A DNA stretch of 62,289 nucleotides, from positions 1 through 62,289 of IMG/VR virus record IMGVR_UViG_3300046009_002641, one strand, 5' to 3'. The position numbers and the translations under genes are program-made. This document shows, piece by piece, positions 43,287-59,192 of the stretch (position 1 is its first letter; each line of letters starts with the position of its first letter). The notes under the pieces are model-generated. The model saw only the letters and a program-made list of their open reading frames with translations, made no database searches and was not told the DNA's origin. This DNA comes from a virus. Lineage: Duplodnaviria > Caudoviricetes.

Positions 43287-43317
43287 GATGTCCTCCATTC
43301 CCCACCAATGTAATCTT

Positions 43318-44772: not shown

Positions 44773-45014
44773 TCCATTTCCACTTTCTTGAGGTTAGCAG
44801 ATGTCCTAGCGTCCACCATGCTCTTTACAAATTTGTGCCAATCGTCAGAGGCTTTAACCTGCAACTCAGCACGGCTAACCGGCATATCGCCAAGAACGGC
44901 CATCATCTGGGACAGAACGGCTGACTTTGTTTCCTCCATCAGCCGCGCTGCATGATCCAGTTCGACCCATTCCTTAGCTACTAGCCTGTAGCGTTCGGAT
45001 ATGGGAGTAGACAT
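44703..45014 (-). CDS. Helical protein of the recombination module
   Basis: Coupled to SSB; all-helical. Confidence 0.7.
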   Translation of the reverse strand: MSTPISERYRLVAKEWVELDHAARLMEETKSAVLSQMMAVLGDMPVSRAELQVKASDDWHKFVKSMVDARTSANLKKVEMEWIKMRFSEQQSREATERAERKL

Positions 45015-45238
45015 TAAAAATCATCACCTGAGTTGGATTTAGACTTATTGTAAGGTTCTTGGAGCGTCAGGCTAATGGAAGCGACTTTCCCGTCATCGCC
45101 CATGTTTACCCAACCGGAAATCTGAATCTCCTCACCCTTCCATTTAGCAGAACCGCCAAAATTAGGGTGTTTATCAGACTTGCGCTCCAGATTTTTAAAA
45201 ATACGTCCTTTGCCTTCAGCGTGTTCATATTTAGCCAT
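45014..45238 (-). CDS. Small ssDNA-binding protein (DUF736-like)
   Basis: G.IFKN..KSDKHP.F.G...ISGW...acidic tail DDF. Confidence 0.7.
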   Translation of the reverse strand: MAKYEHAEGKGRIFKNLERKSDKHPNFGGSAKWKGEEIQISGWVNMGDDGKVASISLTLQEPYNKSKSNSGDDF

Positions 45239-45857
45239 TATCTTCTCCTGTAGCGACATCGTTAATATATTTCTCAACCGCCTTATATTCACGGACAATC
45301 ACAGCCTGATCAGACAGTGTAAGCTTATTTTTATTAGGCTTATTGGACACAGTCCATATGGTCAGATCATCGGATGATTTACATTTACGCAAATCTTCCA
45401 TCATAACCGCAAGCAATTTGGTAGATTCAACATCATCTTTGCCCGTAGATATAATGGTTGCTTTGTTGGCTGTGTTCCCATCATCATCTTCGCCAGCAAT
45501 ACCAACCGCCGCAAACAAAGCTCCGCGACGGGCGTAGGTAAGAGCGGCAAGTCCATCCTGCGGTTTATACGGGACCGCAATGACCGGGTAATGGCTAGCT
45601 AACCATTCTCCACTGGCATGGCCAAGGACGGTTTCCATCATCAACAAGGTATCGGTGAGATATGTGCGCTGAAACACGCATATACCGACAGCCGACAAAG
45701 CCTCACGAACGACGTTTAAACCTTCGTCCAGCGTCGTGTATGTGTTTTTAAAGTGTGAGTTTTTAGCGTTCTTGGTAGGATTTTGGATCGTCTTTTGGGC
45801 TTCGGCAAGAGCGCCAAAGACCGCACCAACTGTCTCACTCTGAAAGGGACTAGACAT
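45231..45857 (-). CDS. ERF-family ssDNA-annealing recombinase
   Basis: K.AKN.HFK..Y..L, H.SGEW, ALTYARRGAL...GIAGEDDDGN. Confidence 0.9.
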   Translation of the reverse strand: MSSPFQSETVGAVFGALAEAQKTIQNPTKNAKNSHFKNTYTTLDEGLNVVREALSAVGICVFQRTYLTDTLLMMETVLGHASGEWLASHYPVIAVPYKPQDGLAALTYARRGALFAAVGIAGEDDDGNTANKATIISTGKDDVESTKLLAVMMEDLRKCKSSDDLTIWTVSNKPNKNKLTLSDQAVIVREYKAVEKYINDVATGEDNG

Positions 45858-46500
45858 TCTGCTTCTCCTTTATCTTAGCTTTAATTTGATGAACGTCGTC
45901 ATTCAGTTCTTTGATAAACGTCTGAATCATCTCCCTCATGGTTGATATGAACATTTCATCCCGCTCTACGCGCTGGACGTAAAGCTGTGCGCCTTCAGGC
46001 ATACGGGGGTCATAACAGACAAAATCACACCATTTACGGCCAGTGCAGTCAAGTTGCATCTGGATCTGTGTTTGCCACTTTTGAGGAATAATATCGCTCA
46101 AAAGAATCTCAAGGTATGTTGCGGTATTGGGGCACTTAATTTCAATAATCCCGTCATCTCCAACAAGACCGTCAGGAGAGCAACCAGCGCCCAGAATGTC
46201 AGGATGGTCAACAAAGCCGACTTCAGTGACTGTATCGAAGATCGTTGCCGCATATGCTGCACGGGCGTTAGGCTCCTGTTCCGTTCCCCATTTCATTGCC
46301 TCTGAAACAAACCCAACAGCAGTTGTCCCGGTGAGGATTTCAAGCACCAGTTCAGCCTTGTAATTTGTCCGGCTAGCGGCAAAACCTGATTTAGTCCTAG
46401 CCATCAAATCCGCAACGCGGGAGGCAGTAACTTTGCCCCTCCGCGCCGCAAACCATTCTGGCGTTCCCTGAACAATGACGTTCGGGTTATTCATGTTCAT
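45850..46500 (-). CDS. YqaJ/lambda-type exonuclease
   Basis: QGTPEWF..R.G..TAS, M.WG..QEP.AR, CSPDGL, EIKCP, Q.Q.Q. Confidence 0.9.
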   Translation of the reverse strand: MNMNNPNVIVQGTPEWFAARRGKVTASRVADLMARTKSGFAASRTNYKAELVLEILTGTTAVGFVSEAMKWGTEQEPNARAAYAATIFDTVTEVGFVDHPDILGAGCSPDGLVGDDGIIEIKCPNTATYLEILLSDIIPQKWQTQIQMQLDCTGRKWCDFVCYDPRMPEGAQLYVQRVERDEMFISTMREMIQTFIKELNDDVHQIKAKIKEKQNV

Positions 46501-46729
46501 TTTCCTTATTGATTTCAGATTCGACGGTTTTCCAAGCTTCGTTAAACGCAAGCACGGCTATAGACAGATGCTTGGCGTATTTAGGATCGACAAATATACC
46601 CACCTTATCGGTAGCCAAAGTGTCGGTATTGTTATCGCCAATTTCCAAAGCCAGATGCTTGCCGTTTTTATACACGAAAGCTTTAAGCGGGCCATTTGCA
46701 AAATATGACACGTTTCTAGACGTCCTCAT
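46487..46729 (-). CDS. Hypothetical early protein
   Basis: GAATGGAG RBS. Confidence 0.6.
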   Translation of the reverse strand: MRTSRNVSYFANGPLKAFVYKNGKHLALEIGDNNTDTLATDKVGIFVDPKYAKHLSIAVLAFNEAWKTVESEINKENEHE

Positions 46730-46742
46730 GTTAGTTCTCCAT

Positions 46743-46949
46743 TCAAGCTGCAAGACGGATGATATCCCGGCTCACTTTAGTTTTTTGTAACCGGATTGCC
46801 TCCCGACCTCTGGCTGCTTCCCAAGCGCGTGAAATGCACTTGCCCCAAGTCCAGCCAAGGCCAAGCCTCTGAGATTGCCGCCACTGACGATGAGCATCGC
46901 GCATGACGGCTTTCCTGTCATATTTGGGTTTAGTCGTAATCTTCTTCAT
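46743..46949 (-). CDS. Hypothetical early protein
   Basis: GGATAGGGA RBS; YDRKAVMRDAH...C...AW..A motif. Confidence 0.65.
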   Translation of the reverse strand: MKKITTKPKYDRKAVMRDAHRQWRQSQRLGLGWTWGKCISRAWEAARGREAIRLQKTKVSRDIIRLAA

Positions 46950-47244
46950 AGTCCCTATCCTGAGCTTTGTAGTTTACGGAATCGTTAACAGCATCGTAAA
47001 TTTTTACGTTGTCTGCCAACGACTGGAACAGTTTTCCGGTAACAACAAAATCCGGCCCTAAGTCACCTTCACGATCTTCATGCAGGGTAATGGCCTCTAT
47101 GTCCCATTCAGGCCCCCAACCGGGATCGCCACCGTAATTGTAGTCAATCAGAGCGGGAGCGCCCCAATCGGATACGGTGTATTCAATCATGGCCACAAAA
47201 TCGCGGCCCATGAAATTAAGGTAGGTTTCGGTTTCGTATGTCAT
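46930..47244 (-). CDS. Acidic hypothetical early protein
   Basis: GGAATGGAG RBS; first gene after the divergent promoter. Confidence 0.65.
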   Translation of the reverse strand: MTYETETYLNFMGRDFVAMIEYTVSDWGAPALIDYNYGGDPGWGPEWDIEAITLHEDREGDLGPDFVVTGKLFQSLADNVKIYDAVNDSVNYKAQDRDYEEDYD

Positions 47245-47269
47245 AGCGGATCTCCATTCCGACAATACC

Positions 47270-47336
47270 AATACGCTAGCATTTTATAGCATGTCAAGGG
47301 TGGAGTTGACAAATTGTAAGATTGTTCTGTAGGAAT
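47270..47336. promoter_or_regulatory. Divergent early promoters with operator (47304-47322)
   Basis: Back-to-back TTGACA on both strands; AGTTGACA-AAT-TGTAAGAT. Confidence 0.7.
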
Positions 47337-47342
47337 GTGTGT

Positions 47343-47531
47343 ATGACTAAAAAAGCCTTACCCAACCCCAAAACTACCCCCGCAATTGAACAGGTCGCCA
47401 AAGACCTTGGCGCAACTATAGGGGCGATATACCAATGGCGCAGACGCGGTGTTTCCGCTGCGTGGCGTATTAAGATTGTTCAGGCGTCCAACAATAAGAT
47501 AAAATTGACGGATTTCCCGGAGGCCATATGA
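47343..47531 (+). CDS. Cro-like HTH regulator
   Basis: VAKDLGATIGAIYQWRRRGVS...I. Confidence 0.75.
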   Translation: MTKKALPNPKTTPAIEQVAKDLGATIGAIYQWRRRGVSAAWRIKIVQASNNKIKLTDFPEAI

Positions 47532-47761
47532 CCGACGACCTCACAGACCATGCGTCGAACTATAGCAGCCTTTCCTATTCAAAGGCTGACTGGCGCACCA
47601 AAATGCTCCGGTGTTTGCCAGAAGATATACCAATGTATCAGGTCAAAAGGTTCGAATGCTACAAGGAAGCTGGTATTCCTGAACAGGTTTATACCGATCT
47701 GGATGCTCAGGTTCTTCACCTTGCGCTTCGCGCCCGCTTTCCGGGGTTTAATCAGTGGTAA
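47528..47761 (+). CDS. Hypothetical protein
   Basis: GGAGG RBS; coupled to neighbours. Confidence 0.6.
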   Translation: MTDDLTDHASNYSSLSYSKADWRTKMLRCLPEDIPMYQVKRFECYKEAGIPEQVYTDLDAQVLHLALRARFPGFNQW

Positions 47762-48153
47762 TCAAGCGCAGGCAGATAGAATCCGGTATTCAGCGCGGGA
47801 TCGTGCAATACATCCGTTCAGTCCTTCCAAGGGCTGTATTGATGGCGATTCCCAACGGTTCGCAGCGCACTGCATCTGGTCGCCCTGCCAACGCTGTGCC
47901 GGGTTTCCTGCCGGGCGCTCCTGATTTGATTCTTGCTTTGCCTAACCGTGAAGTGATTTGGATAGAGGTTAAGTCACCTATTGGCCGGTTGAGCGACAAC
48001 CAAAAACACGTTCACGCCATGCTTGATACGATAGGCCACAAGATTATTCTGGCGCGTTCGATTGACGATATTCGTGAAGCTTTTGCGTATTACGGCATAA
48101 AAACTAAGGATACATGGAATGGAGAACCTAGAGATGGCGAAGGAAGCAATTAA
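47755..48153 (+). CDS. VRR-NUC nuclease
   Basis: E..IQ, IPNG, G.PDL, IEVK...GRLS..Q. Confidence 0.85.
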   Translation: MVIKRRQIESGIQRGIVQYIRSVLPRAVLMAIPNGSQRTASGRPANAVPGFLPGAPDLILALPNREVIWIEVKSPIGRLSDNQKHVHAMLDTIGHKIILARSIDDIREAFAYYGIKTKDTWNGEPRDGEGSN

Positions 48154-48727
48154 GTGGCAACATGAGTGGGTTGAGCACGCGAAAAAGATATTGGCTGCTG
48201 GCGGATCTATGGGCGAGGCAGCTAATGGCGTAAACCACAAATTTGGTGTTCGCGTAACCCGAAACTCCATGATTGGGAAAATCCATCGTTTAAAGGCTGA
48301 TGGCGATTTTAATTTGCCCGAACCTGAGCAATGGAAAAATAAATCCATGGAGACCTTTGTTAGCTATTGGCATAGCGGAATCTCCAGCACTGACATTGGG
48401 CATTACTTTGGGGTTGAGAGCAGCACAATCCGCGACAAAGCGTATAAATATGGATTGACCCCTAGAGGGACTGAAACTGGTTGGCGGGCGCTTAAAAAGC
48501 CTGTTCCTAAAACGGTGAAAGTCGCATCTGACGGTATTAGTAAGCGCACGACGTTTCCTAATCCTAAAGCCAAAGCTGTGCTGTTTGAAAATTTAACTAG
48601 CCGGATGTGCCGCTTCGTTATAGGGGATAAGCCTTTCTACTTTTGCGGCGCTGATGTCGAACTTGGTTCGCCTGTCCCTTACTGCACACATTGCAGGAAG
48701 GTGATGTATACGCCCTCTAATCGCTAG
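48119..48727 (+). CDS. gcrA: GcrA-like cell-cycle regulator (start may be 48134)
   Basis: TRNSMIGKIHRL HTH; C-terminal L....CRF.IGD...FCG.....YC..C; extra internal HTH. Confidence 0.8.
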   Translation: MENLEMAKEAIKWQHEWVEHAKKILAAGGSMGEAANGVNHKFGVRVTRNSMIGKIHRLKADGDFNLPEPEQWKNKSMETFVSYWHSGISSTDIGHYFGVESSTIRDKAYKYGLTPRGTETGWRALKKPVPKTVKVASDGISKRTTFPNPKAKAVLFENLTSRMCRFVIGDKPFYFCGADVELGSPVPYCTHCRKVMYTPSNR

Positions 48728-48737
48728 GGAGGAAAAA

Positions 48738-49292
48738 GTGGCGACAGATAAAAATTTTGTAGACTCTAACGATATTGTTCACTTGTTAGAGAAACAATAC
48801 GAAACCACAGGTTTGAAGGTTTTGCGTATTGCCGCTTCTGAGTTGCGCCGGTTGTATAAACTTCTTGATCAGGAAGTTTTGAAAATTGAAAATGGAGAAC
48901 CTGAAAACCTTACGATTCGTATGAGCGTTGTTCTTAAAATGGCGCATCGGTATTTTGGCATGTCTATTGATGACATTATATCGCACAAGCGTTCGCTGAA
49001 ATACATGGCTCCCCGTCAGGTGACGATATATGTCGCCCGCAAACTTACGGACCTTTCAACGCCGCAAGTTGGAAAATGGTTTGGCGGTCGTGATCACACC
49101 ACCGTTATCCATGCCTGCAAAAAGGTCGATGAAGAAATAAAAAAGAACAATAAGCAATGGATCAAATACGTCGATGAACTTTCTGCGCTGTGCAAGAAAG
49201 AAGCTGCTATTGAGCATGAGAGAATAGAGGAAGCTAAAAGATGTCAGAGGATACAGAATCTTTCGCTGAGACGTCCCGCGTTGACGCCGTGA
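48738..49292 (+). CDS. DnaA C-terminal (domain IV) DNA-binding domain protein
   Basis: R......PRQV..Y.AR.LT.LS.PQVG.WFGGRDHTTVIHA..KV; no AAA+ domain. Confidence 0.85.
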   Translation: MATDKNFVDSNDIVHLLEKQYETTGLKVLRIAASELRRLYKLLDQEVLKIENGEPENLTIRMSVVLKMAHRYFGMSIDDIISHKRSLKYMAPRQVTIYVARKLTDLSTPQVGKWFGGRDHTTVIHACKKVDEEIKKNNKQWIKYVDELSALCKKEAAIEHERIEEAKRCQRIQNLSLRRPALTP

Positions 49293-49561
49293 CACTTGAG
49301 GTCGTGGATACTTGCATGAGCGTCGTTGATGAGTATTGCAAAGCCAATAACTTCGATGCGACAGCAATGATCTTCATGTCTGTTCATGTCGCGGCTCATC
49401 TGATGGCGCGCGGCTTGTTCTTTGCCGATGGGCCGGAAGGTCGTGACCGTCTGCGGAATAAGATGATGGACAATGCTGCGGAGATACTTGATTCGGCCCG
49501 TCAGCATATTGACCAGTCTGAACGTGAGCTTAACCAGAGCAAGATAATTAGGCCGAATTAA
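49241..49561 (+). CDS. Hypothetical protein
   Basis: GAGGA RBS; helical. Confidence 0.6.
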   Translation: MSEDTESFAETSRVDAVTLEVVDTCMSVVDEYCKANNFDATAMIFMSVHVAAHLMARGLFFADGPEGRDRLRNKMMDNAAEILDSARQHIDQSERELNQSKIIRPN

Positions 49562-49576
49562 TAGGCCCGGAATGAC

Positions 49577-49613
49577 GACGGCGGCTTGACTTGGAGCCAG
49601 CCGCCGTCATACT
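49577..49613 (+). promoter_or_regulatory. Hairpin overlapping a putative promoter
   Basis: GACGGCGGCT/AGCCGCCGTC stem overlapping TTGACT-16-CATACT. Confidence 0.45.
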
Positions 49614-49678
49614 CTGGGAATGGTTCGGGGCTGCAACCCCTGACCGGATGACACTGGAGACAACCGGAGTAAACGGCT

Positions 49679-49939
49679 ATGCCATCGGCTAGCAAGATAA
49701 ATACGCCCAAGCTTACCCAAAATCAACCCGGACAATCGCATACAAAGGCGAACAGTCAAAAGATGACTGACGCCATGGAGCTTTATGCTCTTTTGGGGCA
49801 GCTTGCTGATTTGGCCGATCATGCCCGCCGGGGGATCGACCTTGCCGGAATCACCATCGCGGAAAGCACAGTTCAAGAAATGCTTGGCTATGCCCGTGAG
49901 GTTTCCCGTTTAATGAAAAAAATAGGGGAGCATAAATAG
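49679..49939 (+). CDS. Hypothetical protein
   Basis: GGAG RBS; C-terminal helical part. Confidence 0.55.
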   Translation: MPSASKINTPKLTQNQPGQSHTKANSQKMTDAMELYALLGQLADLADHARRGIDLAGITIAESTVQEMLGYAREVSRLMKKIGEHK

Positions 49940-50300
49940 CCTTTGGCTTAGCTTCCCTAATCAGCCGCCAGCTTAGGCGAGCCGCCCGGATCTTGGCATC
50001 CGATTGAGCGGGGACAAAATCGGGAAATACCAGAAAATGGGGGCTGTCCCGGCCCGGTGGGAAATCTTGCGGAAAGATCCACCATACCTGACGATGCAGA
50101 CGATACCACAAGTCCTCATGGAGAGGCCGGAGCGGCAAGGGGATGCCGTTAGGGTGAACAGCCCATCCTAGTCAGGGAATACCAGAACCGCTGTCTAACC
50201 CGTCCGTATGGTCCCCAATGGCACAGCTTAAGCCGCCGGGGGCGTCCATCCCAGCCAATAGGCTCCAAGGGGTGGTATCGGAGCATACGGGAGAGGGAGC
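49940..50300 (+). ncRNA. Highly structured non-coding region (ncRNA or replication origin)
   Basis: Nested stems and a 13-14-nt direct repeat; no convincing ORF. Confidence 0.45.
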
Positions 50301-50309
50301 TATGCCTAA

Positions 50310-50879
50310 ATGGCAGGGAATGTAGACATGGATGACTATGACTGGGGATTACCGGAGCCGAAAAAAACCAAGTCGATTGCTGACGTCCTGAAGGATAGCA
50401 GCAAGAGAGACTATCTGAACGATGAGTTCAAAAGACGGGCTGAGAGAGGTAGGCAGGCTGAGGAGGCTGTCGCCCGTTACCTTGAACGCTGCGGTTTTGA
50501 GGTTCGATTGCCTGAGAAGATAATACGGGAAAACATAGAAGATCGTAAGAAATTTAGCGATAACGGAGACCTATTCTATAAAAAAGACGACGTCTGGTAT
50601 GAGGTTGATGTTAAAAGCCACGACTACAAAACCAAACCATTTATCAGCGTTGAGGAATTCCCCTACCCAAATGTTTTGTTAGCCCGCGAGCATAGGATGA
50701 ACTTTCGCAGAACCTATAAATGGGTTACTGTATCAAGTGATTTCAGATATGGTATCGTTACGCCGTTGGAGAGCGTGATATACTGGTTCAAAGAAACAAG
50801 AACTAAGAAAAATTATGGAACGGTAGAGACTGATTGGTATGTGCCTAAGGAGCATGCCAAAGTTGTAAAACTGGTTTGA
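50310..50879 (+). CDS. PD-(D/E)XK nuclease-like protein
   Basis: G..AE..V..YL, D.GDL, EVDVKS. Confidence 0.6.
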   Translation: MAGNVDMDDYDWGLPEPKKTKSIADVLKDSSKRDYLNDEFKRRAERGRQAEEAVARYLERCGFEVRLPEKIIRENIEDRKKFSDNGDLFYKKDDVWYEVDVKSHDYKTKPFISVEEFPYPNVLLAREHRMNFRRTYKWVTVSSDFRYGIVTPLESVIYWFKETRTKKNYGTVETDWYVPKEHAKVVKLV

Positions 50880-50891
50880 TAGGGGAATAGA

Positions 50892-52391
50892 ATGGAGCTT
50901 CGTGACTATCAGCAAACAGCCATAGATTCCGTCCGGACGGAGATAATTTCTGGTCATAAACCAGTTTTGTCTGCGCCGACTGGATCTGGAAAGACTCTGA
51001 TCGCATCTGAGATATTTGCGCTTGCCCGTGAGAAAAACAAGCGCGTTGTGTTTGTTGTTCCATTTCTAAGTTTAATTAATCAAACTTGGCGGGCATTTGA
51101 ACGCGCTGGCATGGACGCCAGAGATATGAGCATCATACAAGGTGATCACCAACTTACCAACTACTCCAAGCCAATACAGATTGCATCGGCGCAAACTTTG
51201 GAGCGTCGTCCTAAGCTACCAGAAGCTGATATGGTTATTTTTGATGAGTGCCATATTAATCGTAAGATATATCAGCGTTGGATGAATGAAGCGCCGCACA
51301 TAACATTCATAGGTCTGTCAGCCACGCCTTGGGCCAATGGCATGGGAGACCTTTGGTCCAAGATGATTGTAGTTTCTACGCTTGCGGAGTTGATTGAACA
51401 AAAGCATCTGTCGCCTTTTAAATATTACGCCCCCGCACAGCCTGATCTTTCCAAGGCTAGGGTTAGAATGGGCGACTACGTCGAATCAGATTTAGAAAAG
51501 ATCATGGTCGATGCAACTCTTATAGCTGACATTGTGAATACATGGCGTGAAAAAGCTAATGGGCGTCCGACGTTTTGTTTCTGTGTAAACCGCAAACATG
51601 CTCAAGAGGTTCAGGCTCAATTTTTACGGGCTGGCATACCGGCTGGATATGTTGATGCTTACACAAAAGTTGAGGAACGTGAAAATCTTGTGGCTCAGTT
51701 AAAAACTGGGCATTTAAGCGTCATATGCAACATTGGCACCATGACAACTGGCGTTGATGCGCCGTTTGTATCTTGCATCATCATGGCCCGTCCTACCAAA
51801 TCTGAGATGTTGTTCATTCAGATTGTCGGTCGTGGGCTTCGCCAAGATCCTGAGAGTGGCAAGACTGATTGCCTCATACTGGATCATAGCAATACAGCGC
51901 TCAACCTTGGCCGACCTGATGAAATCCACTACGATGGTTTTGCATCAGCCAAGGCTGCCACGGCTGCGGAAAAGCGCAAGCAAGAAAAGAATAAAAAGAA
52001 ACCGCGACTTTGCCCGTGCTGTCAATTTGTTCTTTTGCCAAAAGAATCTGATTGCCCTTCATGCGGATATCAGTTTCCGCCTCCTGTCAGTAACGTCGCT
52101 GTTCATGAGGGAGCGCTTGCTGAGTTGGGGCGCAAGGGTAAAGTCGGCAAATATGAGCGCGACGACAAGCAGGCTTGGTATTCTGGGCTTCTTTGGATTG
52201 CCAAAGATCGGGGATATAACAAAGGCTGGGTGGCTCACAAATACAAAGAGGCTTTTGGAGTCTGGCCAAAGGGTTTAGACGAAAGGCCGGAGTTCCCGGA
52301 CGCCACTATTTTTAATTGGGTCAAATCCAGAAATATAGCTTGGGCAAAAGTTCAGAATAAAATCCGTCAATCTGGAGGTCTTAATGGCTAG
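50892..52391 (+). CDS. Superfamily-2 (DExH) helicase with C-terminal Zn finger
   Basis: LRDYQ, APTGSGKT, DECH, SAT, TTGVD, Q.VGRGLR, CPCC..CPSC. Confidence 0.92.
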   Translation: MELRDYQQTAIDSVRTEIISGHKPVLSAPTGSGKTLIASEIFALAREKNKRVVFVVPFLSLINQTWRAFERAGMDARDMSIIQGDHQLTNYSKPIQIASAQTLERRPKLPEADMVIFDECHINRKIYQRWMNEAPHITFIGLSATPWANGMGDLWSKMIVVSTLAELIEQKHLSPFKYYAPAQPDLSKARVRMGDYVESDLEKIMVDATLIADIVNTWREKANGRPTFCFCVNRKHAQEVQAQFLRAGIPAGYVDAYTKVEERENLVAQLKTGHLSVICNIGTMTTGVDAPFVSCIIMARPTKSEMLFIQIVGRGLRQDPESGKTDCLILDHSNTALNLGRPDEIHYDGFASAKAATAAEKRKQEKNKKKPRLCPCCQFVLLPKESDCPSCGYQFPPPVSNVAVHEGALAELGRKGKVGKYERDDKQAWYSGLLWIAKDRGYNKGWVAHKYKEAFGVWPKGLDERPEFPDATIFNWVKSRNIAWAKVQNKIRQSGGLNG

Positions 52392-52914
52392 GGCTGGTCG
52401 CAAGCGCAAAGAAGGTGATCGTTACCCTGCTGGCCAGATCCGTCCGGCTGAGGAAGGACCGTCTCCGGCTGCCATAAAACGTCTCCGCAGTGCGGCTATA
52501 CTTGGCATGGCTGATCCCCAATGGGGCAGCGTGGCCGGGCTTTGTTATCTCCAGAAGATGATCGACGATATTGAGTATGAAGCCGCCAAGCGGTTTGGGG
52601 ATCTCCACGCTCAGTATATCGGGGTGATTGGTGGTCCCCGTGCCCCAAAGACATCCACCGGAGAGCGCCCAACAAGGGCTGCTGAAATTGATGTAGATAC
52701 TGAGCAGGGTGATCGTGAGGCTAAGCGGCACATCACTGTCATGACACGCTACAATGACGCCCACACGGCTTTGCTGATGGTAAGCCCGGCGACTGAGGCC
52801 GATCTGATTCGGTTTTGCGCTATGCCGGGAGAATCGCCCACCGGGTATGAGGGAATGGTCCGTGTTCGCTCTGGGCTTCGGACGCTGGCTGCCCTGTGGA
52901 AAATATCGAAATAA
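52384..52914 (+). CDS. Hypothetical protein (possible late transcription regulator)
   Basis: GGAGG RBS; basic N-terminus, GL..LA C-terminal helix; last gene of the rightward unit. Confidence 0.65.
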   Translation: MARAGRKRKEGDRYPAGQIRPAEEGPSPAAIKRLRSAAILGMADPQWGSVAGLCYLQKMIDDIEYEAAKRFGDLHAQYIGVIGGPRAPKTSTGERPTRAAEIDVDTEQGDREAKRHITVMTRYNDAHTALLMVSPATEADLIRFCAMPGESPTGYEGMVRVRSGLRTLAALWKISK

Positions 52915-52937
52915 AAAAAGCCCCGCCGAAACGGGGC
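52913..52937 (-). terminator. Intrinsic terminator (leftward)
   Basis: Minus strand GCCCCG-TTTCGG-CGGGGC-TTTTTTT. Confidence 0.75.
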
Positions 52938-52988
52938 AAATACCAAGGGAGGAAAACTCATCTTCTCATGGTATTTACGCTCAGTCAA

Positions 52989-53007
52989 ATTTGACTAGCT
53001 GTCAGAT
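52989..53007. promoter_or_regulatory. Operator copy overlapping back-to-back TTGACT -35 boxes
   Basis: ATTTGACT-AGC-TGTCAGAT; palindrome AGTCAAATTTGACT 52983-52996. Confidence 0.65.
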
Positions 53008-53021
53008 AGAATATAAATAAA

Positions 53022-53123
53022 AAACAGAACCATCTGGTTCTCCTTTCTAACTTATTCGCCGGTCCCTATCCCGGTGATATGCCCCGCCAGCGTCATCTCC
53101 ATTCCGCTGGTGGGGCTTTTTTT
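53022..53123 (+). ncRNA. Putative three-hairpin anti-Shine-Dalgarno sRNA
   Basis: TTGACT-17-TAAATA upstream; three hairpins; last is a terminator with T7 tail; C/U-rich segments complementary to phage RBSs. Confidence 0.6.
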
Positions 53124-53325
53124 ATTTACGATACTTTTCGTATGTGGCTTTGGCCTTGGCAAAGTGACCGTTGGTTTCTGATTCAATTTCAGCTTCCGCA
53201 AACGGCTTGATTGCCTCCATAAGCTCATCGACCTTTAACTCTAACTTAGCCATTTCCCAGCGAAGTTGGGCTTCGCCAGATTTATGGGTTCGGATCGTGG
53301 TGACGTCAAAGATCGTGCGTTTCAT
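53122..53325 (-). CDS. Hypothetical protein
   Basis: Overlapping leftward operon. Confidence 0.6.
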   Translation of the reverse strand: MKRTIFDVTTIRTHKSGEAQLRWEMAKLELKVDELMEAIKPFAEAEIESETNGHFAKAKATYEKYRK

Positions 53326-53539
53326 ATTTCGATAATCTTCTGGCTAGTTCTTCGTTCTTCTGTTTCGCCCGATCAAGTTTACGATCCAGAGTTCCAATTT
53401 TATCGTATTGCTGCTGGAGGCCCATTGCGGCCCCCAACATGATTGCCTGCGCCAATTCCAGCTTTTGCTCCTGATCTACCCGGAACGTCTCAAGCTGCTT
53501 GATCAGGGGCAGGATTTCAATTTTCGGTTTGTTTGTCAT
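53306..53539 (-). CDS. Coiled-coil hypothetical protein
   Basis: Overlapping leftward operon. Confidence 0.6.
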   Translation of the reverse strand: MTNKPKIEILPLIKQLETFRVDQEQKLELAQAIMLGAAMGLQQQYDKIGTLDRKLDRAKQKNEELARRLSKYETHDL

Positions 53540-53735
53540 TTTTAGAAGCTTTAATTTTATCGCAATGTTCTTCAAATGACGCCATCAACCGTTCAGTATA
53601 TTCATCATCTGTCTCAAAACCGTTAGCTTGAGCATATAAGTTGCGTAAGCCAGTAAGTTCGTCGCGGACAAACATAAGTTCTTCAGCCATTTCACGAAAA
53701 ACGGCCAACAGGGCCTCAAACTGTGCGTCATTCAT
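53517..53735 (-). CDS. Hypothetical protein (MNDAQFEALL...)
   Basis: GAATGGAG RBS before ATG 53735. Confidence 0.65.
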   Translation of the reverse strand: MNDAQFEALLAVFREMAEELMFVRDELTGLRNLYAQANGFETDDEYTERLMASFEEHCDKIKASKNDKQTEN

Positions 53736-53850
53736 TTTCTGTCTCCATTCTTCCAGTCTCCCCGGCGCTACGCTACCCGCGCTGTCGGCATTCCGGCTGT
53801 TGGCCCGCGCGAACCGTGACCTTCTCAGGGAGTGAGCGACAATCACTTTT

Positions 53851-53905
53851 TTCTGAAATTTTGTCAAATTACCTGTTGCATCTTATCTGACAATATGTAA
53901 GATAA
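53851..53905. promoter_or_regulatory. Divergent promoter region with operator(s)
   Basis: ATCTGACA-ATA-TGTAAGAT 53885-53903 (best palindrome); weaker TTCTGAAA-TTT-TGTCAAAT 53851-53869. Confidence 0.7.
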
Positions 53906-53929
53906 CTGTATCAGCAATGGAGAACTAAA

Positions 53930-54271
53930 ATGGCTAACGTCAAGAACGCCCCTGAAGGTATCTATTTTACGGAGCATGGATATAGCGAATGCTATCCGTG
54001 GATTGTTAAAAAGGTCAGCCCGTCAGGCAAGACAATTACGCTGGCGCGGGTTGAGACAAAAAATGACCCGGAGTGGAAGCCGAATTTTATCTCCGGCGGT
54101 TTCTGCGCTCATTGCGATAACCAGCATCAGCAGACATGGCTTTTCGATAGCATCTGTCCGATGAGAACAAGGACGATCCGTCTGAATAAAAAAGGCCAGT
54201 GGGTCCACAAAGATGTCATTTTTACAGAAGCGCCAAAAGGCCCATATTACTTCTACGATTACAATTTTTAG
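53930..54271 (+). CDS. Hypothetical early protein
   Basis: AATGGAG RBS; GGFCAHC.NQ..Q.W ... YYFYDYNF motif. Confidence 0.75.
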   Translation: MANVKNAPEGIYFTEHGYSECYPWIVKKVSPSGKTITLARVETKNDPEWKPNFISGGFCAHCDNQHQQTWLFDSICPMRTRTIRLNKKGQWVHKDVIFTEAPKGPYYFYDYNF

Positions 54272-54277
54272 GAATTA

Positions 54278-54297
54278 GGGGCTTCGGCCCATTTTTC
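54278..54297 (+). terminator. Intrinsic terminator (UUCG loop)
   Basis: GGGC-TTCG-GCCC-ATTTTT. Confidence 0.55.
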
Positions 54298-54301
54298 TCG
54301 C

Positions 54302-54329
54302 TTGACTGTTATCTTACAATCTGTATAAT
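54302..54329 (+). promoter_or_regulatory. Promoter with operator (54311-54329)
   Basis: TTGACT-16-TATAAT; ATCTTACA-ATC-TGTATAAT. Confidence 0.75.
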
Positions 54330-54358
54330 CAAATCATCAAAGTGAATGGAGAATCACG

Positions 54359-54625
54359 ATGAAATCTGAACTTGCTGATCGTTACGCCGCCCTGAAGATC
54401 GAACTGGAAGCCGCTCAGGCTGCTCTGGATGCGGTTAAAGCGGAGATCCTTGCCACCGGATGCGATATTCTGGAAGGCGATGATTTCCGGGTTAACGTGG
54501 GCCTTCAGGAGCGCACGACCATTTCCGCCAAGGAAGCTGAGAAGGTTTTGCCCCCGGATCTGTATGGCGTTCTGGCCAAGACCACCATGTTCCCGGCTGT
54601 CCGTTACAAAGCCATCCGGGCCTAA
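54359..54625 (+). CDS. Hypothetical early protein
   Basis: GAATGGAG RBS. Confidence 0.7.
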   Translation: MKSELADRYAALKIELEAAQAALDAVKAEILATGCDILEGDDFRVNVGLQERTTISAKEAEKVLPPDLYGVLAKTTMFPAVRYKAIRA

Positions 54626-54626
54626 T

Positions 54627-54815
54627 ATGCAGACACAGCGGCGCAGAAAAGAGCCGTGTCATTCAGACCGTCATTCCCGACTGACAAAAGCTGAGGCGGA
54701 TACGTTTCAGTTGATGCAAAAGGGGATGGCGGTCGATGACATTTGCAAGACCCTTAACATAACCCCCGGAACAGCGCGCATCCGGATCAGGGTTATCAAG
54801 GAGAAAACGCAGTGA
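54627..54815 (+). CDS. LuxR-type HTH protein
   Basis: LTKAE..TF.LM..G....DI...LNITPGTA. Confidence 0.6.
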   Translation: MQTQRRRKEPCHSDRHSRLTKAEADTFQLMQKGMAVDDICKTLNITPGTARIRIRVIKEKTQ

Positions 54816-55111
54816 GGTCATCGTCCATCCCGTTTGCCATGCTTGGTTTTGGCATTATCATAGGCGCTGGCCTGATGCTTGCGGCAACCCCAACCCCTGT
54901 ATGGAATGTAAAGTGCCAAACATACGGTGTCTCACATAAAGTGGCCACGTCATATGTCCTCAGGTCTCCGCCGGCTGAGGTCGTCTACAAGGCTTGCCCG
55001 CAAGTAACAGAAAAGGCCGAACCTGTTAGTGAGCCGGAAATAGCTAAGGTGGATGAGATCAAGCCGCGTCACCATCGGCGCCACCATAGAGTGCGGAGGT
55101 ATTGGCGATGA
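54812..55111 (+). CDS. Membrane-anchored protein with His/Arg-rich tail
   Basis: N-terminal TM; RHHRRHHRVRR. Confidence 0.65.
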   Translation: MRSSSIPFAMLGFGIIIGAGLMLAATPTPVWNVKCQTYGVSHKVATSYVLRSPPAEVVYKACPQVTEKAEPVSEPEIAKVDEIKPRHHRRHHRVRRYWR

Positions 55112-55368
55112 CTGACTACACCGACCTAATCGCACGGCTGCGTGCTCGCGTCCCGTCCATCTATGACTGCAAAGACGCCGCCGATGCCCTTGCGGCGCAA
55201 GCCGCCCGCATCGCGGAACTTGAAGCGGCGCTGTGTCCGTTTGCTGACGTAGACGTTTCTGACTGCGCTGATGGCCACGTTTGCTATTTCTGGGGATTTG
55301 GCGAGAACGCTGGAAAGGTTAGCGCAGCCGAAGTCCGCGCCGCCCGCGCCGCTTTGGAGAAGAAGTGA
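55108..55368 (+). CDS. Small cassette protein (MTDYT...ARIAELEAAL...RAARAALEKK)
   Basis: ATGA-coupled; shared motifs with following ORFs. Confidence 0.65.
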   Translation: MTDYTDLIARLRARVPSIYDCKDAADALAAQAARIAELEAALCPFADVDVSDCADGHVCYFWGFGENAGKVSAAEVRAARAALEKK

Positions 55369-55703
55369 TGACTGACTACACCAACACCTACCCCGACCTT
55401 GTGAACGTCGAAGATTGGCTGAACGCCAAGGGCTACACGGGCGAGGCTGGCGCTTGTCATCAGGCTATGAGCCTGATCCGCAAGCAAGAGACGCGGATTG
55501 CGGAGTTGGAAAAAATGCTCGCCGTGCATCGTCTGGCGGTTGACGTTGACGCCTTAAAAGCCCGCATCGCGGAACTTACTGCGGCGCTGCGAGAGTTCAA
55601 CTTCTATCTGATTTTGGATAGCGACAAGGACACTGACACTTTGCCTGTGTTGATTGGACATATCCGCGCCGCGCGCGCCTCTTATCTGGGAGAGAAGGAA
55701 TGA
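55365..55703 (+). CDS. Small cassette protein (MTDYT...RIAEL...RAARA)
   Basis: Paralogous ends. Confidence 0.65.
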   Translation: MMTDYTNTYPDLVNVEDWLNAKGYTGEAGACHQAMSLIRKQETRIAELEKMLAVHRLAVDVDALKARIAELTAALREFNFYLILDSDKDTDTLPVLIGHIRAARASYLGEKE

Positions 55704-55867
55704 CTGACGAACAATTCAACGCGCTTATGGCGCTTATTGACGCGATGATTGATGACAAAATCATCGGAGACAATCACACCTCTTACCGCAAGATGCTTTT
55801 GGAAAAAGACGCAAGGGCGTTGTTCGTTGAAGCCGCCCGCGCCGCTTTGGAGGATAAGAATGACTGA
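55700..55867 (+). CDS. 55-aa cassette protein (absent from ORF track)
   Basis: MTDEQFNALMALIDAMI...EAARAALEDKND; ATGA-coupled. Confidence 0.6.
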   Translation: MTDEQFNALMALIDAMIDDKIIGDNHTSYRKMLLEKDARALFVEAARAALEDKND

Positions 55868-56075
55868 ATCGTCTGATAAGCGTAAGCTAAGGCATGAAAA
55901 GTGGAAGGCCAAAAAGGCATCTGATCCTGAATTTGCCGCCAAGCAAAGGGAGTTGAGCCGTGCCGCCAAGAAGCGCTATGAGGCAAAGAAGAAACTAACC
56001 CGGCAATCATCTGGTCCTGTAGGTTCTGGAAAGCCGGGTAGGATTGTCGCCCTGTGTGGGTGGAGTGGCTGGTGA
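55860..56075 (+). CDS. Small basic protein
   Basis: GGAGG RBS before ATG 55860. Confidence 0.6.
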   Translation: MTESSDKRKLRHEKWKAKKASDPEFAAKQRELSRAAKKRYEAKKKLTRQSSGPVGSGKPGRIVALCGWSGW

Positions 56076-56602
56076 TGTTGATCGCTGAAAGTAAATTCTC
56101 CCCGTCACCGGAGCAGGAAGGATTCTTTGATCTTGTCCGGGGAGATAGCTTTCCTTGGTATTCTCTTCGAACATTAGACGATAATCATTCCCCATATCAA
56201 TTTTGTCATGCTTTGATGAAACGCTCCTTGTCAGGTGAGCCGGAAGAAGGTATAGTCAATTCAGGATATTACGAATATTCCAAGAACCTTTTTCTGGATG
56301 TTTGCGCTTCCGTTGGCATGGAAGTCAGCGACATTTATCGAATAGCTTTTAACAATACCTCCTATTCACCCCAGAAATGGGTAGATCCCCATAAGGATCA
56401 TGAGTTCGATCACAAGGTATTGATTTTGTATATAAACGACTTTGACAAGGGCCAGACATTCTTAATGGATGAGGACAAGAACGTGGTCCATATCATAGAG
56501 CCTGAGAAGTATAAGGTGGTTGTTTTCGACAACTGTTATCACACGCATACCTTCTGTTTGCCTGATCAGCTTCGTATTGTTCTGGTAGCCACGTTTAACT
56601 AG
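56075..56602 (+). CDS. 2OG-Fe(II) oxygenase
   Basis: PHKDH (HxD), ILYIN...G.T, V.FD..YH, RIVL..TF; AT-richer. Confidence 0.8.
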   Translation: MLIAESKFSPSPEQEGFFDLVRGDSFPWYSLRTLDDNHSPYQFCHALMKRSLSGEPEEGIVNSGYYEYSKNLFLDVCASVGMEVSDIYRIAFNNTSYSPQKWVDPHKDHEFDHKVLILYINDFDKGQTFLMDEDKNVVHIIEPEKYKVVVFDNCYHTHTFCLPDQLRIVLVATFN

Positions 56603-56619
56603 AACTTAGGGATAGGGAA

Positions 56620-56883
56620 ATGTCCGACATCAAGAGCATTCTGATTGAGCGGGGAAAGACCCACGGCGACTACGCCCGCCATGCTGGAACAACCCAGTGC
56701 CTGAAATCTGTCATGCGCCACACCCAAAACTGGGGTGAGCTTGGCCCATCCCAAACGGAAGCCCTTGAGATGATCGCCCACAAGATTGGTCGCATCTTGA
56801 ATGGTGATCCCGATCATGAGGATCACTGGGACGATATAGCCGGATACGCCACACTGGTCGCTGATCAGCTTAGGAAGCGGTAA
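56620..56883 (+). CDS. DUF6378-like protein
   Basis: ERG.THGDY...KIGRILNGDP.H.DHWDDIAGYA.LV. Confidence 0.75.
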   Translation: MSDIKSILIERGKTHGDYARHAGTTQCLKSVMRHTQNWGELGPSQTEALEMIAHKIGRILNGDPDHEDHWDDIAGYATLVADQLRKR

Positions 56884-56945
56884 CTGAATAGCTAAAGCTT
56901 AACCGCAATCGTTGACAAAAGATCAAAATGGTATTTGGATACCTC

Positions 56946-57320
56946 ATGCCTAAAGGTAAGACCAACAATCCAAAGGGCCGAACAGTCGGCATTCCAAATC
57001 CTACAACCCGTGTTGGGTATGTGGGTGTCATGGATGTCCGCATGCTTGCTAAGGCATGGACAACTGATTCCATTGAGACCCTAGCTGAGATAATGAAGGA
57101 CAAGGCCGCTCCCCCGGCTAGTCGGGTTGCTGCTTCCGTGGCGCTTCTTGATCGTGGCTGGGGCAAGCCTGCCCAGACTGTCGATACGACCGTCCATAAC
57201 AAGTTTGATGATAGGTCGGACGATGAACTTAGACGCCTTATCACGGGAACAGTTATTAGCACTGGCCCCAATCGCGGCAGAATTGAACTTGAGGGAGAGT
57301 CGGAGGAATTGTCAGAGTGA
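56946..57320 (+). CDS. terS: Terminase small subunit
   Basis: MPKG...NPKGR; R.AA...LLDRGWGKP.Q; directly upstream of TerL. Confidence 0.75.
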   Translation: MPKGKTNNPKGRTVGIPNPTTRVGYVGVMDVRMLAKAWTTDSIETLAEIMKDKAAPPASRVAASVALLDRGWGKPAQTVDTTVHNKFDDRSDDELRRLITGTVISTGPNRGRIELEGESEELSE

Positions 57321-58932
57321 TCTGGCTACCTTCGTCCATGAAGCTTGGAAAGTCGTAGAGCCGGGAAACCCCCTGATCTGGGGATGGCACATGCAGGCCA
57401 TCTGCGATCATTTGGAGGCTGTGGCCAATGGGGAGATCAACCGGCTCCTGATTAACGTCCCGCCGGGCTTTTCCAAGTCGCTCCTGACGTCTGTGTTCTT
57501 TCCTAGCTTCGTTTGGGCCAATGATCCGCATATGCGGTTCCTGTGCGCCTCGCATAGCCAGAACCTTGCTATACGCGATTCGACCAAGATGCGCCGGCTG
57601 ATCCAGTCTGAATGGTATCAGACCCGATGGGGCAAAGAGGTCGTCCTGACGGGGGACCAGAACGCCAAGACCAAGTTCGAAAACACAAAGGCAGGGTTTC
57701 GTGAGGCAGTTGCCGCTGGAAGCATTACGGGTAGCCGTGGCGATATTGTCATTATCGACGATCCTCACTCTGTTGAGTCTGCGTCGTCTGAGGCGATGCG
57801 GGCGACGACTTCGGAATGGTTCCTTGAGGCGGTTCCTACCCGTCTGAACAACCCCGCCGAATCAGCCATCATCGTGATTATGCAGAGGCTGCATGAGGAG
57901 GATGTCTCCGGGATCATCCTAGACAAGCAGCTTGGCTATGAGCATCTGATGCTGCCCATGCGGTTTGAGCCTGACCGCAAGTGCTACACGTCTATCGGGT
58001 TCGAAGATCCCCGTGAGGAGGAGGGTGAGCTTCTGTTCCCTGAGCGCTTCCCGGCTGAGGTCGTAGAGCGTGATGAGCGGGTCATGGGGCCGTATGCGAC
58101 GGCTGGCCAGTTCCAGCAGCGACCGACTGTCAGGGGCGGCGCTATCATCCGCAGGCAGGACTGGATGCTCTGGGATGAGGCTGAGGCAAAGGCCCATGGC
58201 ATCAAGGACGGATCGTCCTACCCGCCGATGGACACGATCATCGCCAGCTTGGATACGGCCTACACTGAGAAGCAAGAGAACGACGCCAGCTATCTGACGA
58301 TCTGGGGCGTCTGGCAGCGCTCAGCCGCCGTTGCTCTGGCCCACACAAGCCGGGAAGGCAGTCGCCTTGAGCATCTTGAAGAACGTGACACGATCCCCGC
58401 CGTCATGCTCATGTATGCCAAGGAGATGCGCCTTGCGATTCATGGCGAAGATCTTGAGCGTGAGCCGGGTGAGACAGACAGCGCCTTCCTGATTCGCCAG
58501 CGTAACGCATGGGGCCTGTGCGAGTGGGTGACTCACCATTGCAACCAGTTCAAGGTCGATAAGCTTCTGATCGAAGCTAAGGCAAACGGCATCACAGTGG
58601 GGCAGGAACTGAAGCGCCTGAACCGGGTGAACCGCTGGAGCGTGGAACTGGTCAATCCGGGAGCGCTGGACAAGGTCGCCCGCGCCTATGGCGTCCAATC
58701 GACATTCACCAACGGTCAGGTGTATGCTCCGGATCGGGATTGGGCGGAGAAAGTGATTGCCCAAGCGGAGGCGTTTCCGAAGGGCAAGCATGACGATGCG
58801 GTCGATTCCACGACACAAGCGTTACGCTATTTACGCGAGCGTGGCCTGCTTGATCGTCAGGAAGATATTGCTGCCCGCGCTGCTTGGGAGGCGGGGCAAC
58901 CGATCAAGAAGAAGATAATCTATGACGTCTGA
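57223..58932 (+). CDS. terL: Terminase large subunit
   Basis: INVPPGFSKS (Walker A), IIDDPH (Walker B), IMQRLHEED, GQFQQRP, LDTA, IEAKANG, FPKGKHDDAVDS. Confidence 0.95.
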   Translation: MNLDALSREQLLALAPIAAELNLRESRRNCQSDLATFVHEAWKVVEPGNPLIWGWHMQAICDHLEAVANGEINRLLINVPPGFSKSLLTSVFFPSFVWANDPHMRFLCASHSQNLAIRDSTKMRRLIQSEWYQTRWGKEVVLTGDQNAKTKFENTKAGFREAVAAGSITGSRGDIVIIDDPHSVESASSEAMRATTSEWFLEAVPTRLNNPAESAIIVIMQRLHEEDVSGIILDKQLGYEHLMLPMRFEPDRKCYTSIGFEDPREEEGELLFPERFPAEVVERDERVMGPYATAGQFQQRPTVRGGAIIRRQDWMLWDEAEAKAHGIKDGSSYPPMDTIIASLDTAYTEKQENDASYLTIWGVWQRSAAVALAHTSREGSRLEHLEERDTIPAVMLMYAKEMRLAIHGEDLEREPGETDSAFLIRQRNAWGLCEWVTHHCNQFKVDKLLIEAKANGITVGQELKRLNRVNRWSVELVNPGALDKVARAYGVQSTFTNGQVYAPDRDWAEKVIAQAEAFPKGKHDDAVDSTTQALRYLRERGLLDRQEDIAARAAWEAGQPIKKKIIYDV

Positions 58933-59167
58933 GACTGGAGTTCCCGACTTCCCCGCCCTTGTCGAACTGGCCAGCAGGCTGAAAGGCAAGGATCGCAAGA
59001 CATGCGAACTGGCGCTCTACACGTTGAAGAAGCAGGATAAGCGGCTGGCTAAGCGTGACGCCCGGATTGCTGAGCTTGAGGCTTTCCGCCGGGATGCCTT
59101 CAAGGAAGTGGCCGAACTGGCCAGAGAATGTGGTGGGCTCAGGGCGCAATTGCCCCACCCGAAATGA
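58922..59167 (+). CDS. Coiled-coil hypothetical protein
   Basis: Contains ARIAELEA like the 55-kb cassettes. Confidence 0.55.
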   Translation: MTSETGVPDFPALVELASRLKGKDRKTCELALYTLKKQDKRLAKRDARIAELEAFRRDAFKEVAELARECGGLRAQLPHPK

Positions 59168-59192
59168 CCCAAACGGATAGGGAAAGTATGGG

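Follow-up and report, generated by a model that had tools for sequence, protein, structure and literature searches.

Does a phage encode a small RNA that reads the ribosome-binding sites of its own genes? The question is raised by a locus of about 100 nucleotides (nt) in IMG/VR virus record IMGVR_UViG_3300046009_002641 (Duplodnaviria; Caudoviricetes), a complete record of 62,289 bp from lake water, which was analysed over its whole length and is referred to here as the window, or as phage W. The locus combines a promoter-like site, three hairpins and a terminator with three pyrimidine-rich segments that are complementary to extended ribosome-binding sites (RBSs) of the same phage. A preliminary description, made from the sequence alone, had suggested a trans-acting silencer of early genes. 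The feature is real, statistically strong and replicated across lineages. We consider it probable that a discrete RNA is made from the locus, and the best reading of the sequence data, to which we would give an even chance, is a trans-acting anti-RBS RNA directed at 11-16 non-structural genes.

Complementarity to the ribosome-binding tags of the phage

To describe the RBSs of phage W, 9-mers were counted in the 25 nt upstream of 89 predicted starts, taken as the predicted translation-initiation regions (TIRs). The only 9-mers that recur in at least three of the 89 TIRs are the GAATGGAGA family and GGATAGGGA, and these are the complements of the terminator loop (loop 3) and of the hairpin 2 loop (loop 2) of the predicted RNA (Table 1). 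The exact GAATGGAGA 9-mer is present in five TIRs, and AATGGAG in eight of the 32 TIRs that bear GGAG; GGATAGGGA is present in three, and AAAGGAGAA, the complement of segment 1, in two. Over both strands of the window, five of the seven copies of GAATGGAGA and three of the five copies of GGATAGGGA lie in TIRs, and the minus strand of the RNA gene itself supplies one further copy of each.

A complement of at least 9 nt to the RNA is found in 11 of the 89 TIRs, and two further TIRs (44163 and 53930), both carrying AAUGGAG, have an 8-nt complement. All seven complementarities quoted in the preliminary description are exact Watson-Crick matches, and five more RBS matches of the GAATGGAGA type can be added to them (Table 1). 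The gene with the best match, 47244, is the first gene of the leftward operon and is divergent from a Cro-like gene. The 12-nt complement of loop 3 on the minus strand at 41932-41943, GAATGGAGATGA, lies at the end of a methyltransferase gene; the gene caller placed no start just downstream, and a 43-amino-acid (aa) open reading frame (ORF; 41810-41941) would begin at an ATG inside the motif.

The rank of the locus was assessed by counting how many distant TIRs have a complement of at least 9 nt in common with each 100-nt window of either strand. The RNA locus, with 11 distant TIRs, is the unique maximum of 124,380 windows, and the runners-up lie at or near motif-carrying TIRs and look like trivial antisense strands. 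At the level of regions, seven of 2476 reach an equal count, and these, judged from the list of loci, apparently overlap the RNA locus itself. The matches are not generic Shine-Dalgarno (SD) pairing, as the targets pair over 9-12 nt with the RNA and over only 4-7 nt with a canonical 16S tail, which may differ from that of the host. They are also unevenly distributed, with none among the 41 TIRs of the structural block (1-40.6 kb) and 11 among the 48 elsewhere (Fisher p = 7e-4). A duplexfold count at -13 kcal/mol was not discriminating, nearly all TIRs passing for every element.

Table 1. Positions of the predicted RNA gene, its matches and adjoining features in the window
Feature	Position	Strand	Remark
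Promoter-like site	52991..53019	+	-35 TTGACT (52991-96), 17-nt spacer, -10 TAAATA (53014-19)
Predicted RNA, ~100 nt	53024..53123	+	5' end predicted; 3' end at the U-tract
Hairpin 1 (AGAACC-AUCU-GGUUCU)	53026..53041	+	minus strand, with the following T-run, looks like a weak terminator
Segment 1, GUUCUCCUUU	53037..53046	+	half in hairpin 1 stem, half in single-stranded linker
Hairpin 2	53056..53077	+	7 bp, 8-nt loop UCCCUAUC (53063-70); segment 2 is 53062-72
Intrinsic terminator	53081..53123	+	12-bp stem, 12-nt loop UCAUCUCCAUUC (53093-104), U7; segment 3 is 53093-106
Segment 1 target, AAAGGAGAAC	43703-43694		10 nt, exact complement
Segment 1 target, AAAGGAGAA	45871-45863		9 nt, exact complement
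Segment 2 target, GGAUAGGGA(C)	46960-46951		10 nt, exact complement
Segment 2 target, GGAUAGGGA(C)	56609-56618		10 nt, exact complement
Segment 2 target, GGAUAGGGA(C)	59175-59183		9 nt, exact complement
Segment 3, best target, CGGAAUGGAGAU	47250..47261	-	12 nt, 5 nt before the ATG at 47244
Segment 3 match, GAAUGGAGA-type	41943-41932		12 nt, exact complement
Further segment 3 matches, GAAUGGAGA-type RBSs	48116-25; 43301-293, 46744-36, 53750-42, 54344-52		10 nt at the first, 9 nt at each of the others
Starts of the 11 TIRs with a complement of at least 9 nt	43286, 43689, 45857, 46729, 46949, 47244, 48134, 53735, 54359, 56620, 59193		complements span 43293..59183
176-aa gene of no known family	52384..52914	+	last of the rightward replication operon; a short promoter-to-terminator element is next in the lineages examined
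Convergent cassette, three small genes	53122..53735	-	to reach a minus-strand terminator, its transcript has to enter or cross the RNA gene in antisense
Minus-strand terminators	53041-53026 (weak); 52937-52920 (strong)	-

Promoter, fold and strand

The promoter-like TTGACT-17-TAAATA, three hairpins and T7 tail that had been claimed for the locus are all present at 52991-53123 on the plus strand, and the promoter pattern matches the window once, against 0.03 matches expected. The stretch from 53024 to 53123 folds into three hairpins and U7 at -44 kcal/mol (z = -8.4), and none of 200 shuffles folds as well. Segment 3 is predicted to be unpaired at 12 of 14 nt and segment 2 at 8 of 11 nt, while in segment 1 the unpaired probability rises from 0 over the first 4 nt to 0.13 at the fifth and 1 over the last five. 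A stable fold, at -43 kcal/mol, is predicted for the minus strand of the RNA gene as well. The terminator is oriented for the plus strand, with T7 after it and no A-run before it, and two G:U pairs, one in hairpin 2 and one in the terminator stem, exist on the plus strand only, where the minus strand would have A:C mismatches. The putative assignment to the plus strand draws only on terminator polarity, these two pairs and the promoter.

Read on the minus strand, hairpin 1 (53026-53041) is followed by GTTTTTTATTTAT and scores as terminator-like, with 8 pairs in a relative, E (see below); it may serve as a terminator of the convergent cassette. A plus-strand ORF at 53079-53210 (43 aa) was considered and rejected, its ATG being AAG in relative B.

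Conservation in close relatives

Pattern and protein searches found three relatives with the same RNA, A and B in IMG/VR and C on a metagenome contig, and a fourth, E, was found via the neighbouring 176-aa protein (78% identical). A second scan of viral contigs with a loop-3 pattern found only A, B and E, and a distant blastn search of 52850-53200 against the phage collection gave no match. Pattern-scan matches at L013 and in six of eight metagenome loci (L014-16, L018, L019 and L021) were discarded as chance matches in unrelated sequence.

The RNA body is identical to that of W at 90 of 93 positions in A, 90 of 91 in B and 91 of 91 in C (97-100%), while the flanking genes of A and C are 80-88% identical, and the body is under stronger constraint than these neighbours. 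The three differences between A and W are two loop insertions, of which that in hairpin 1 is 1 nt long, and a change from G:U to G:C in hairpin 2. The -35 and TAnnTA are kept at constant spacing in A, B and C while the spacer sequence changes; in B the spacer is wholly different, and a 313-nt insertion divides the promoter from the module upstream. The promoter of E, read by eye, is TTGATT-17-TAAAAA. Contigs from three other sequencing runs lose homology at exactly 53026, and the only difference listed inside the RNA is 53117 T>C, up to a few unlisted ones being possible. None of the runs listed as containing the phage is recorded as RNA, and four wastewater runs labelled 'RNA?' are probably DNA. 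The RNA window of B is the maximum of that genome, with a count of 9, the insertion having put it outside the span of the lineage scan described below.

The tags on the target genes are kept as well. All 12 nt of the 47244 tag are present in A and B, and E has GGAAUGGAGA, with 10 of 12, on a gene whose protein has only 54% identity. GGAATGGAGA is retained in E by the orthologues of 47244, 48134 and 53735, whose proteins are 54-58% identical, so that the tags outlast the divergence of their flanks in orthologues with as little as 54% protein identity. The tag is also found on genes that are not orthologous, namely the 519-aa gene at 7890 in A, the inserted 87-aa ORF in B and the gene at 7159 in C.

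E has a different hairpin 2, without loop 2, and carries no GGATAGGGA tag on the two orthologues present. For the co-variation of loop and RBS among relatives that had been proposed as a check, the relevant observations are that E lacks both loop 2 and the GGAUAGGGA tags and that the seeds do not vary between W, A, B and C. The 46729 tag of W, GAATGGAGAAC, reads TAAGGAGAACC in E and is still complementary, having passed from a segment 3 type to a segment 1 type. The extra U in hairpin 2 of A gives a 9-nt match to the changed leader of the A orthologue of 59193, which is suggestive only.

Elements at the same position in diverged lineages

An alignment of the 176-aa protein found 22 loci. In each lineage, as judged by eye, its gene is directly followed by a -35 of the TTGAC type and a -10-like box, then by hairpins over 60-110 nt and a terminator. 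In each lineage the 420 nt behind the gene were searched for their best 100-nt window, which was compared with all regions of that genome, using exact 9-mers. This window matches 11 distant TIRs in W and 12 in E (region-level p 0.0028 in both), five in F (p 0.019) and five in D1 (p 0.017), three in G8 (p 0.31), two in G11 (p 0.44), and none or one in D1b, D2, G9 and G10 (p 0.92 or above). With W and E counted as one, three of nine lineages are significant, and the more distant ones are not.

These matches are specific to the lineage. In D1 the dominant RBS class is GGAGAGACAAA (GGAGAGAC in six TIRs), and the D1 element, which looks unrelated to that of W, has single-stranded UUUGUCUCUUC / UUUGUCUCUUCAUAG facing GGAGAGACAAA over 11-15 bp with one G:U. 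The element of phage F presents UGUUUCUCC to the RBS class of that phage, GGAGAAACA. In D1b, GUCUCUUCAUC is retained and faces (G)AUGGAGAGAC over 10-11 bp, one of them G:U, despite the zero of this lineage in the exact 9-mer test. We also compared each element with the TIRs of its own and of other phages, accepting matches of at least 8 Watson-Crick pairs. The W element matches 16 of 89 TIRs of its own and 19 of 78 in E, against 27 of 475 in eight other phages, and the D1 element 9 of 53 of its own against 22 of 589 in others. The match is thus neither random nor shared across lineages.

A proposed trans-acting RNA and the alternatives

The reading that we prefer is as follows. A self-contained RNA gene of about 100 nt, with its own sigma-70-type promoter, would lie at the 3' end of the rightward replication operon and share the intrinsic terminator of that operon. 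The RNA would display three pyrimidine-rich segments, in the linker beside hairpin 1, in the loop of hairpin 2 and in the large terminator loop, which are the Watson-Crick complements of the extended tags AAAGGAGAA(C), GGAUAGGGA and (G)GAAUGGAGA carried by 11-16 non-structural genes in at least four transcription units. It would pair in trans with these tags over the SD, from 1 to 10 nt upstream of the start codon. Access of 30S subunits would thereby be blocked and the translation, and perhaps the stability, of the messages of this gene set lowered, so that the RNA would be the counterpart of a global translational repressor. The sequence features, the non-random match and the conservation are observed; we infer that the locus is transcribed and where its transcript begins, that pairing takes place in vivo, that its effect is repression, and when it acts. 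The suggestion of a multi-target silencer of early genes holds up in part: specific complementarity and a conserved body speak for the silencer, but the targets are not strictly early: they are non-structural genes spread over four or more transcription units, and two of these units adjoin terminase genes. In common with trans-acting small RNAs (sRNAs) generally, the locus has seed/target complementarity that is above background and conserved (rank 1 of 124,380 windows, tags kept in orthologues, and lineage-matched elements in D1 and F). Its promoter-like site and intrinsic terminator are conserved too and may give a discrete transcript.

We put forward more tentatively, and would sooner doubt than assert, a private translational address system in which a regulon of small non-structural genes bears lineage-specific RBS tags (GAAUGGAGA, GGAUAGGGA and AAAGGAGAAC in W, GGAGAGACAAA in D1 and GGAGAAACA in F) that are served by one matching RNA reader. 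Tag and reader would evolve together, and genes newly acquired would take on the tag. The entire accessory and early set could then be switched by one RNA, and the module may double as a leader or terminator gate before the late genes.

Several observations weigh against a trans-acting RNA. In the exact 9-mer test five of the nine lineages (D1b, D2, G9, G10 and G11) have no excess complementarity and G8 is weak, and in the comparison across phages the contrast for F is weak (9 of 82 own TIRs, 37 of 560 others). Because W, A, B and C do not differ in any of the three seeds, classical co-variation of seed and target is thin, and A keeps loop 2, yet two of its three orthologous class-2 targets are without the tag. 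In the predicted fold, half of segment 1 is buried in the stem of hairpin 1, and an 8-nt loop limits the length of the helix that segment 2 can form. The 89 gene starts come from a simple self-trained, home-made caller and include a few dubious tiny ORFs. Finally, functional RBS-like motifs on the minus strand would yield identical statistics.

Of the alternatives, the one that survives best, and still an unlikely one, is that the locus is a terminator with a structured spacer and nothing more, its complementarity a by-product of CU-rich composition meeting purine-rich RBSs. Any anti-SD-like tract will match some SDs, and the five lineages without excess fit this explanation. It does not readily account for a locus that stands alone at the top of all windows, for matches that extend beyond the SD (AAU before GGAG, and GGAUAGGGA), for a body kept far better than neighbouring coding DNA, or for promoter hexamers conserved over a variable spacer.

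A late-operon leader, a serious rival raised by the fixed position behind the 176-aa gene, is also improbable to our mind. In lambda, the PR'-6S RNA-tR' cassette, placed right behind the final gene of the rightward early operon and before the late region, gives a short terminated transcript. By analogy the 176-aa protein would be an antiterminator or activator for read-through into the late genes, and the RBS match would be secondary or a second function. The placement is alike: in the seven lineages with drawn gene maps the element directly follows the 176-aa gene, upstream of the terminase, portal and structural block, and by eye it has the same position in other lineages, down to about 26-34% protein identity. 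The N-terminus of the 176-aa protein is invariant and rich in Arg and Lys, and in D1 and D1b the terminator is immediately followed by the start of a same-strand gene. Against this reading, Pfam, PHROG, PDB sequence and Foldseek searches linked the protein neither to Q nor to another antiterminator family; downstream of the element W, E, F and G10 have opposite-strand genes over 0.6-1.5 kb, and D1 and D1b have a single gene and then a minus-strand cassette. Late genes on the same strand directly after the terminator are thus not what W has, where 53122-53735 is on the minus strand and plus-strand genes resume at 53930. A lineage-specific match to RBS tags in several transcription units would also be left unexplained, and to our knowledge the lambda leader does not mirror RBSs. 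W therefore resembles lambda in placement, and differs from it in having no Q homology and convergent downstream genes. Lambda 6S is listed among Hfq-bound phage RNAs (in part of PMC12197685).

We think it similarly doubtful that the locus works mainly in cis, as an antisense RNA or bidirectional terminator in which a plus-strand RNA or convergent overlap acts on the 3' end of the cassette (53735 to 53122) and the motifs belong to a minus-strand 3' untranslated region (UTR). No minus-oriented terminator lies between 53122 and those at 53041-53026 or 52937-52920, so that minus-strand transcripts overlap the whole RNA gene, and the stable minus-strand fold (-43 kcal/mol) agrees with such a role. 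Against it, D1 and D1b have a same-strand gene between element and cassette and still keep the RBS-matched segment, the G:U pairs favour the plus strand, and the identity of the motifs with the dominant RBS tags is unexplained. A cis-antisense role is possible alongside a trans role, the two not being exclusive.

The alternative raised in the preliminary description, that minus-strand micro-ORFs MTLAGHITGIGTGE and MVLFFIYILSDS are translated from real RBSs, has the ideal AAAGGAGAAC-CAG-ATG spacing and the RBS-like look of all three motifs on that strand in its favour but is very improbable, since neither is conserved in A, B, C and E: in the first, GGAG abuts the ATG (spacing 0), E has lost the start and A has a frameshift at the end; the second has 12, 5, 12, 12 and 9 aa in W, A, B, C and E, with unrelated tails; and GGGAUAGGGA is without a start codon within reach.

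Comparison with known RNA systems

Phage RNAs that block one ribosome-binding site are familiar (c4, sar and OOP). In T4, the RegA repressor and the RegB endoribonuclease bring about global post-transcriptional shut-off through translation-initiation regions, and we know of global shut-off of early-gene translation only by these proteins; the effector proposed for W differs from them in being an RNA, with its target class marked by an extended RBS tag. If the trans-acting reading is right, the locus is an RNA-based temporal switch, a single small RNA aimed at a dozen phage genes via lineage-specific RBS tags, and it would explain the oddly uniform, non-canonical RBS extensions kept by some phages. 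In gene organisation it resembles MicL and DapZ, 3' UTR-type sRNAs with an internal promoter that share the terminator of the mRNA; these are encoded on host chromosomes and depend on Hfq. Like them, the W RNA has its predicted promoter at or within the end of the preceding coding sequence, and it would end at the operon terminator.

The closest known system is the c4 RNA of P1/P7 (immI), in which exposed loops pair around the RBS and block translation (sections of PMC12197685). The likeness is functional only and lies in a phage-encoded small structured RNA with exposed loops complementary to an RBS region. Whereas c4 acts on one operon (ant) and decides immunity, the W RNA would present three different seeds to 11-16 genes in several operons, and the c4 model of Rfam was not among the 19 matches at E<=10 in 52800-53300. 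The literature searched, which included sections 2 and 7 of the 2025 review PMC12197685, supplementary tables aside, yielded no comparable phage RNA with anti-RBS action on several targets.

Outside phages, cuckoo RNAs consist of 2-4 adjacent hairpins, each with CCUCCUCCC in its loop (part of PMC4615179). Cuckoo and AbcR-type sRNAs of Alphaproteobacteria, together with the UCCC loops of S. aureus RNAIII, share with the W RNA adjacent hairpins that carry C/U-rich anti-SD-like loops, which are thought to occlude RBSs (same part of PMC4615179). They are chromosomal, and in contrast to the cuckoo RNAs the three seeds of W differ from one another and match phage-specific RBS extensions; CCUCCUCCC is absent from 53024-53123, where the loops are AUCU, UCCCUAUC and UCAUCUCCAUUC. 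An alphaproteobacterial setting for W is not supported, the nearest helicases of cultured phages being less than 40% identical and from gammaproteobacterial phages. Rfam 15 gave no match in the whole window at the gathering score. The best sub-threshold match on the plus strand was atoC (26.9 bits against a threshold of 50), and the sub-threshold matches are driven by the terminator. A search for tRNA and tmRNA found neither.

The 176-aa protein

Every lineage examined has the element after the 176-aa gene, so protein and element may work together. The family (52384-52914 in the window, with loci L033-L052) is invariant at the N-terminus, which reads MARxGRKRK..DRYP, and its predicted fold is mostly helical. 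We found no Pfam or PHROG match for the protein and no PDB sequence match at E<=10, and the best Foldseek match has an E of 1.3, the query being an AlphaFold model of the protein with a pLDDT (predicted local distance difference test score) of 69 built from only five sequences. None of its 35 homologues has an informative name. An Atlas feature match, to a cluster of which 21% is DUF6456 (score 0.93), is a lead only. That the protein represents a new Q antiterminator family is possible.

Genomic setting, palindrome and neighbouring motifs

The layout of W is lambdoid-like, with structural genes on the plus strand from about 0.1 to 40.5 kb. The leftward operon runs from 47244 down to about 41250 and includes an Erf recombinase and a DNA methyltransferase, and the rightward operon begins with the Cro-like helix-turn-helix gene (47343), continues with a replication initiator and a helicase, and ends with the 176-aa gene. 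The RNA locus is placed between this gene and the convergent three-gene cassette, whose small minus-strand genes run from 53735 to 53122; the plus-strand genes that restart at 53930 lead to the terminase and portal genes.

A perfect palindrome, AGTCAAATTTGACT (52983-52996), supplies TTGACT on both strands. It had been proposed that the silencer is wired to 'the same operator', which is not supported: the palindrome is unique in the window, its only exact copy being the locus itself, and with up to three mismatches there are five matches against 2.4 expected. In relative B (locus L004, 3590-3930) the 313-nt insertion lies exactly at the centre of AGTCAAATTTGACT and contains the 87-aa minus-strand ORF, which has a GAATGGAGA RBS and a promoter-like site of its own; at this place 384 other letters stand in a 22.8-kb contig of run X9.

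A 9-mer of the promoter spacer, TATCTGACA, has three exact copies, at 43317-43325 (+), 53000-53008 (-) and 53884-53892 (+), which lie in the leftward operon, the RNA promoter spacer and the divergent promoter region at 53.9 kb. The spacers of B and E lack this 9-mer, and with up to one mismatch it has 12 matches against 9.5 expected; a shared protein site is possible, as a weak lead only.

Directly upstream of the RNA locus, the minus strand of 52905-52966 has UUUUCCUCCCUUGG followed by a GC hairpin and U7, a module that A, B, C and E have conserved. This module may represent a second tiny anti-SD RNA, or else the transcript of the minus-strand cassette may have its 3' end here. The model of the alphaproteobacterial sRNA MmgR / alpha-r8 (RF00519) matches 52966-52905 on the minus strand with 23.9 bits (E 0.0022), under its threshold of 41 bits; in this alignment the conserved motif UUUCCUCCCU before the terminator and the terminator itself align, and the first hairpin is missing.

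Two other regions have distinctive RBSs or repeats. Between 7400 and 40000 many structural genes have TAAGGA-type RBSs in which an upstream stop codon overlaps the SD, a pattern that differs from the AAUGGAG tags of non-structural genes. At 55108-56075 there are four tandem small genes, each starting ATGACTGA(C/A), which have the look of a locally amplified array of paralogues, and a 16-nt upstream stretch, CCCGCGCCGCTTTGGA, is common to two of the four.

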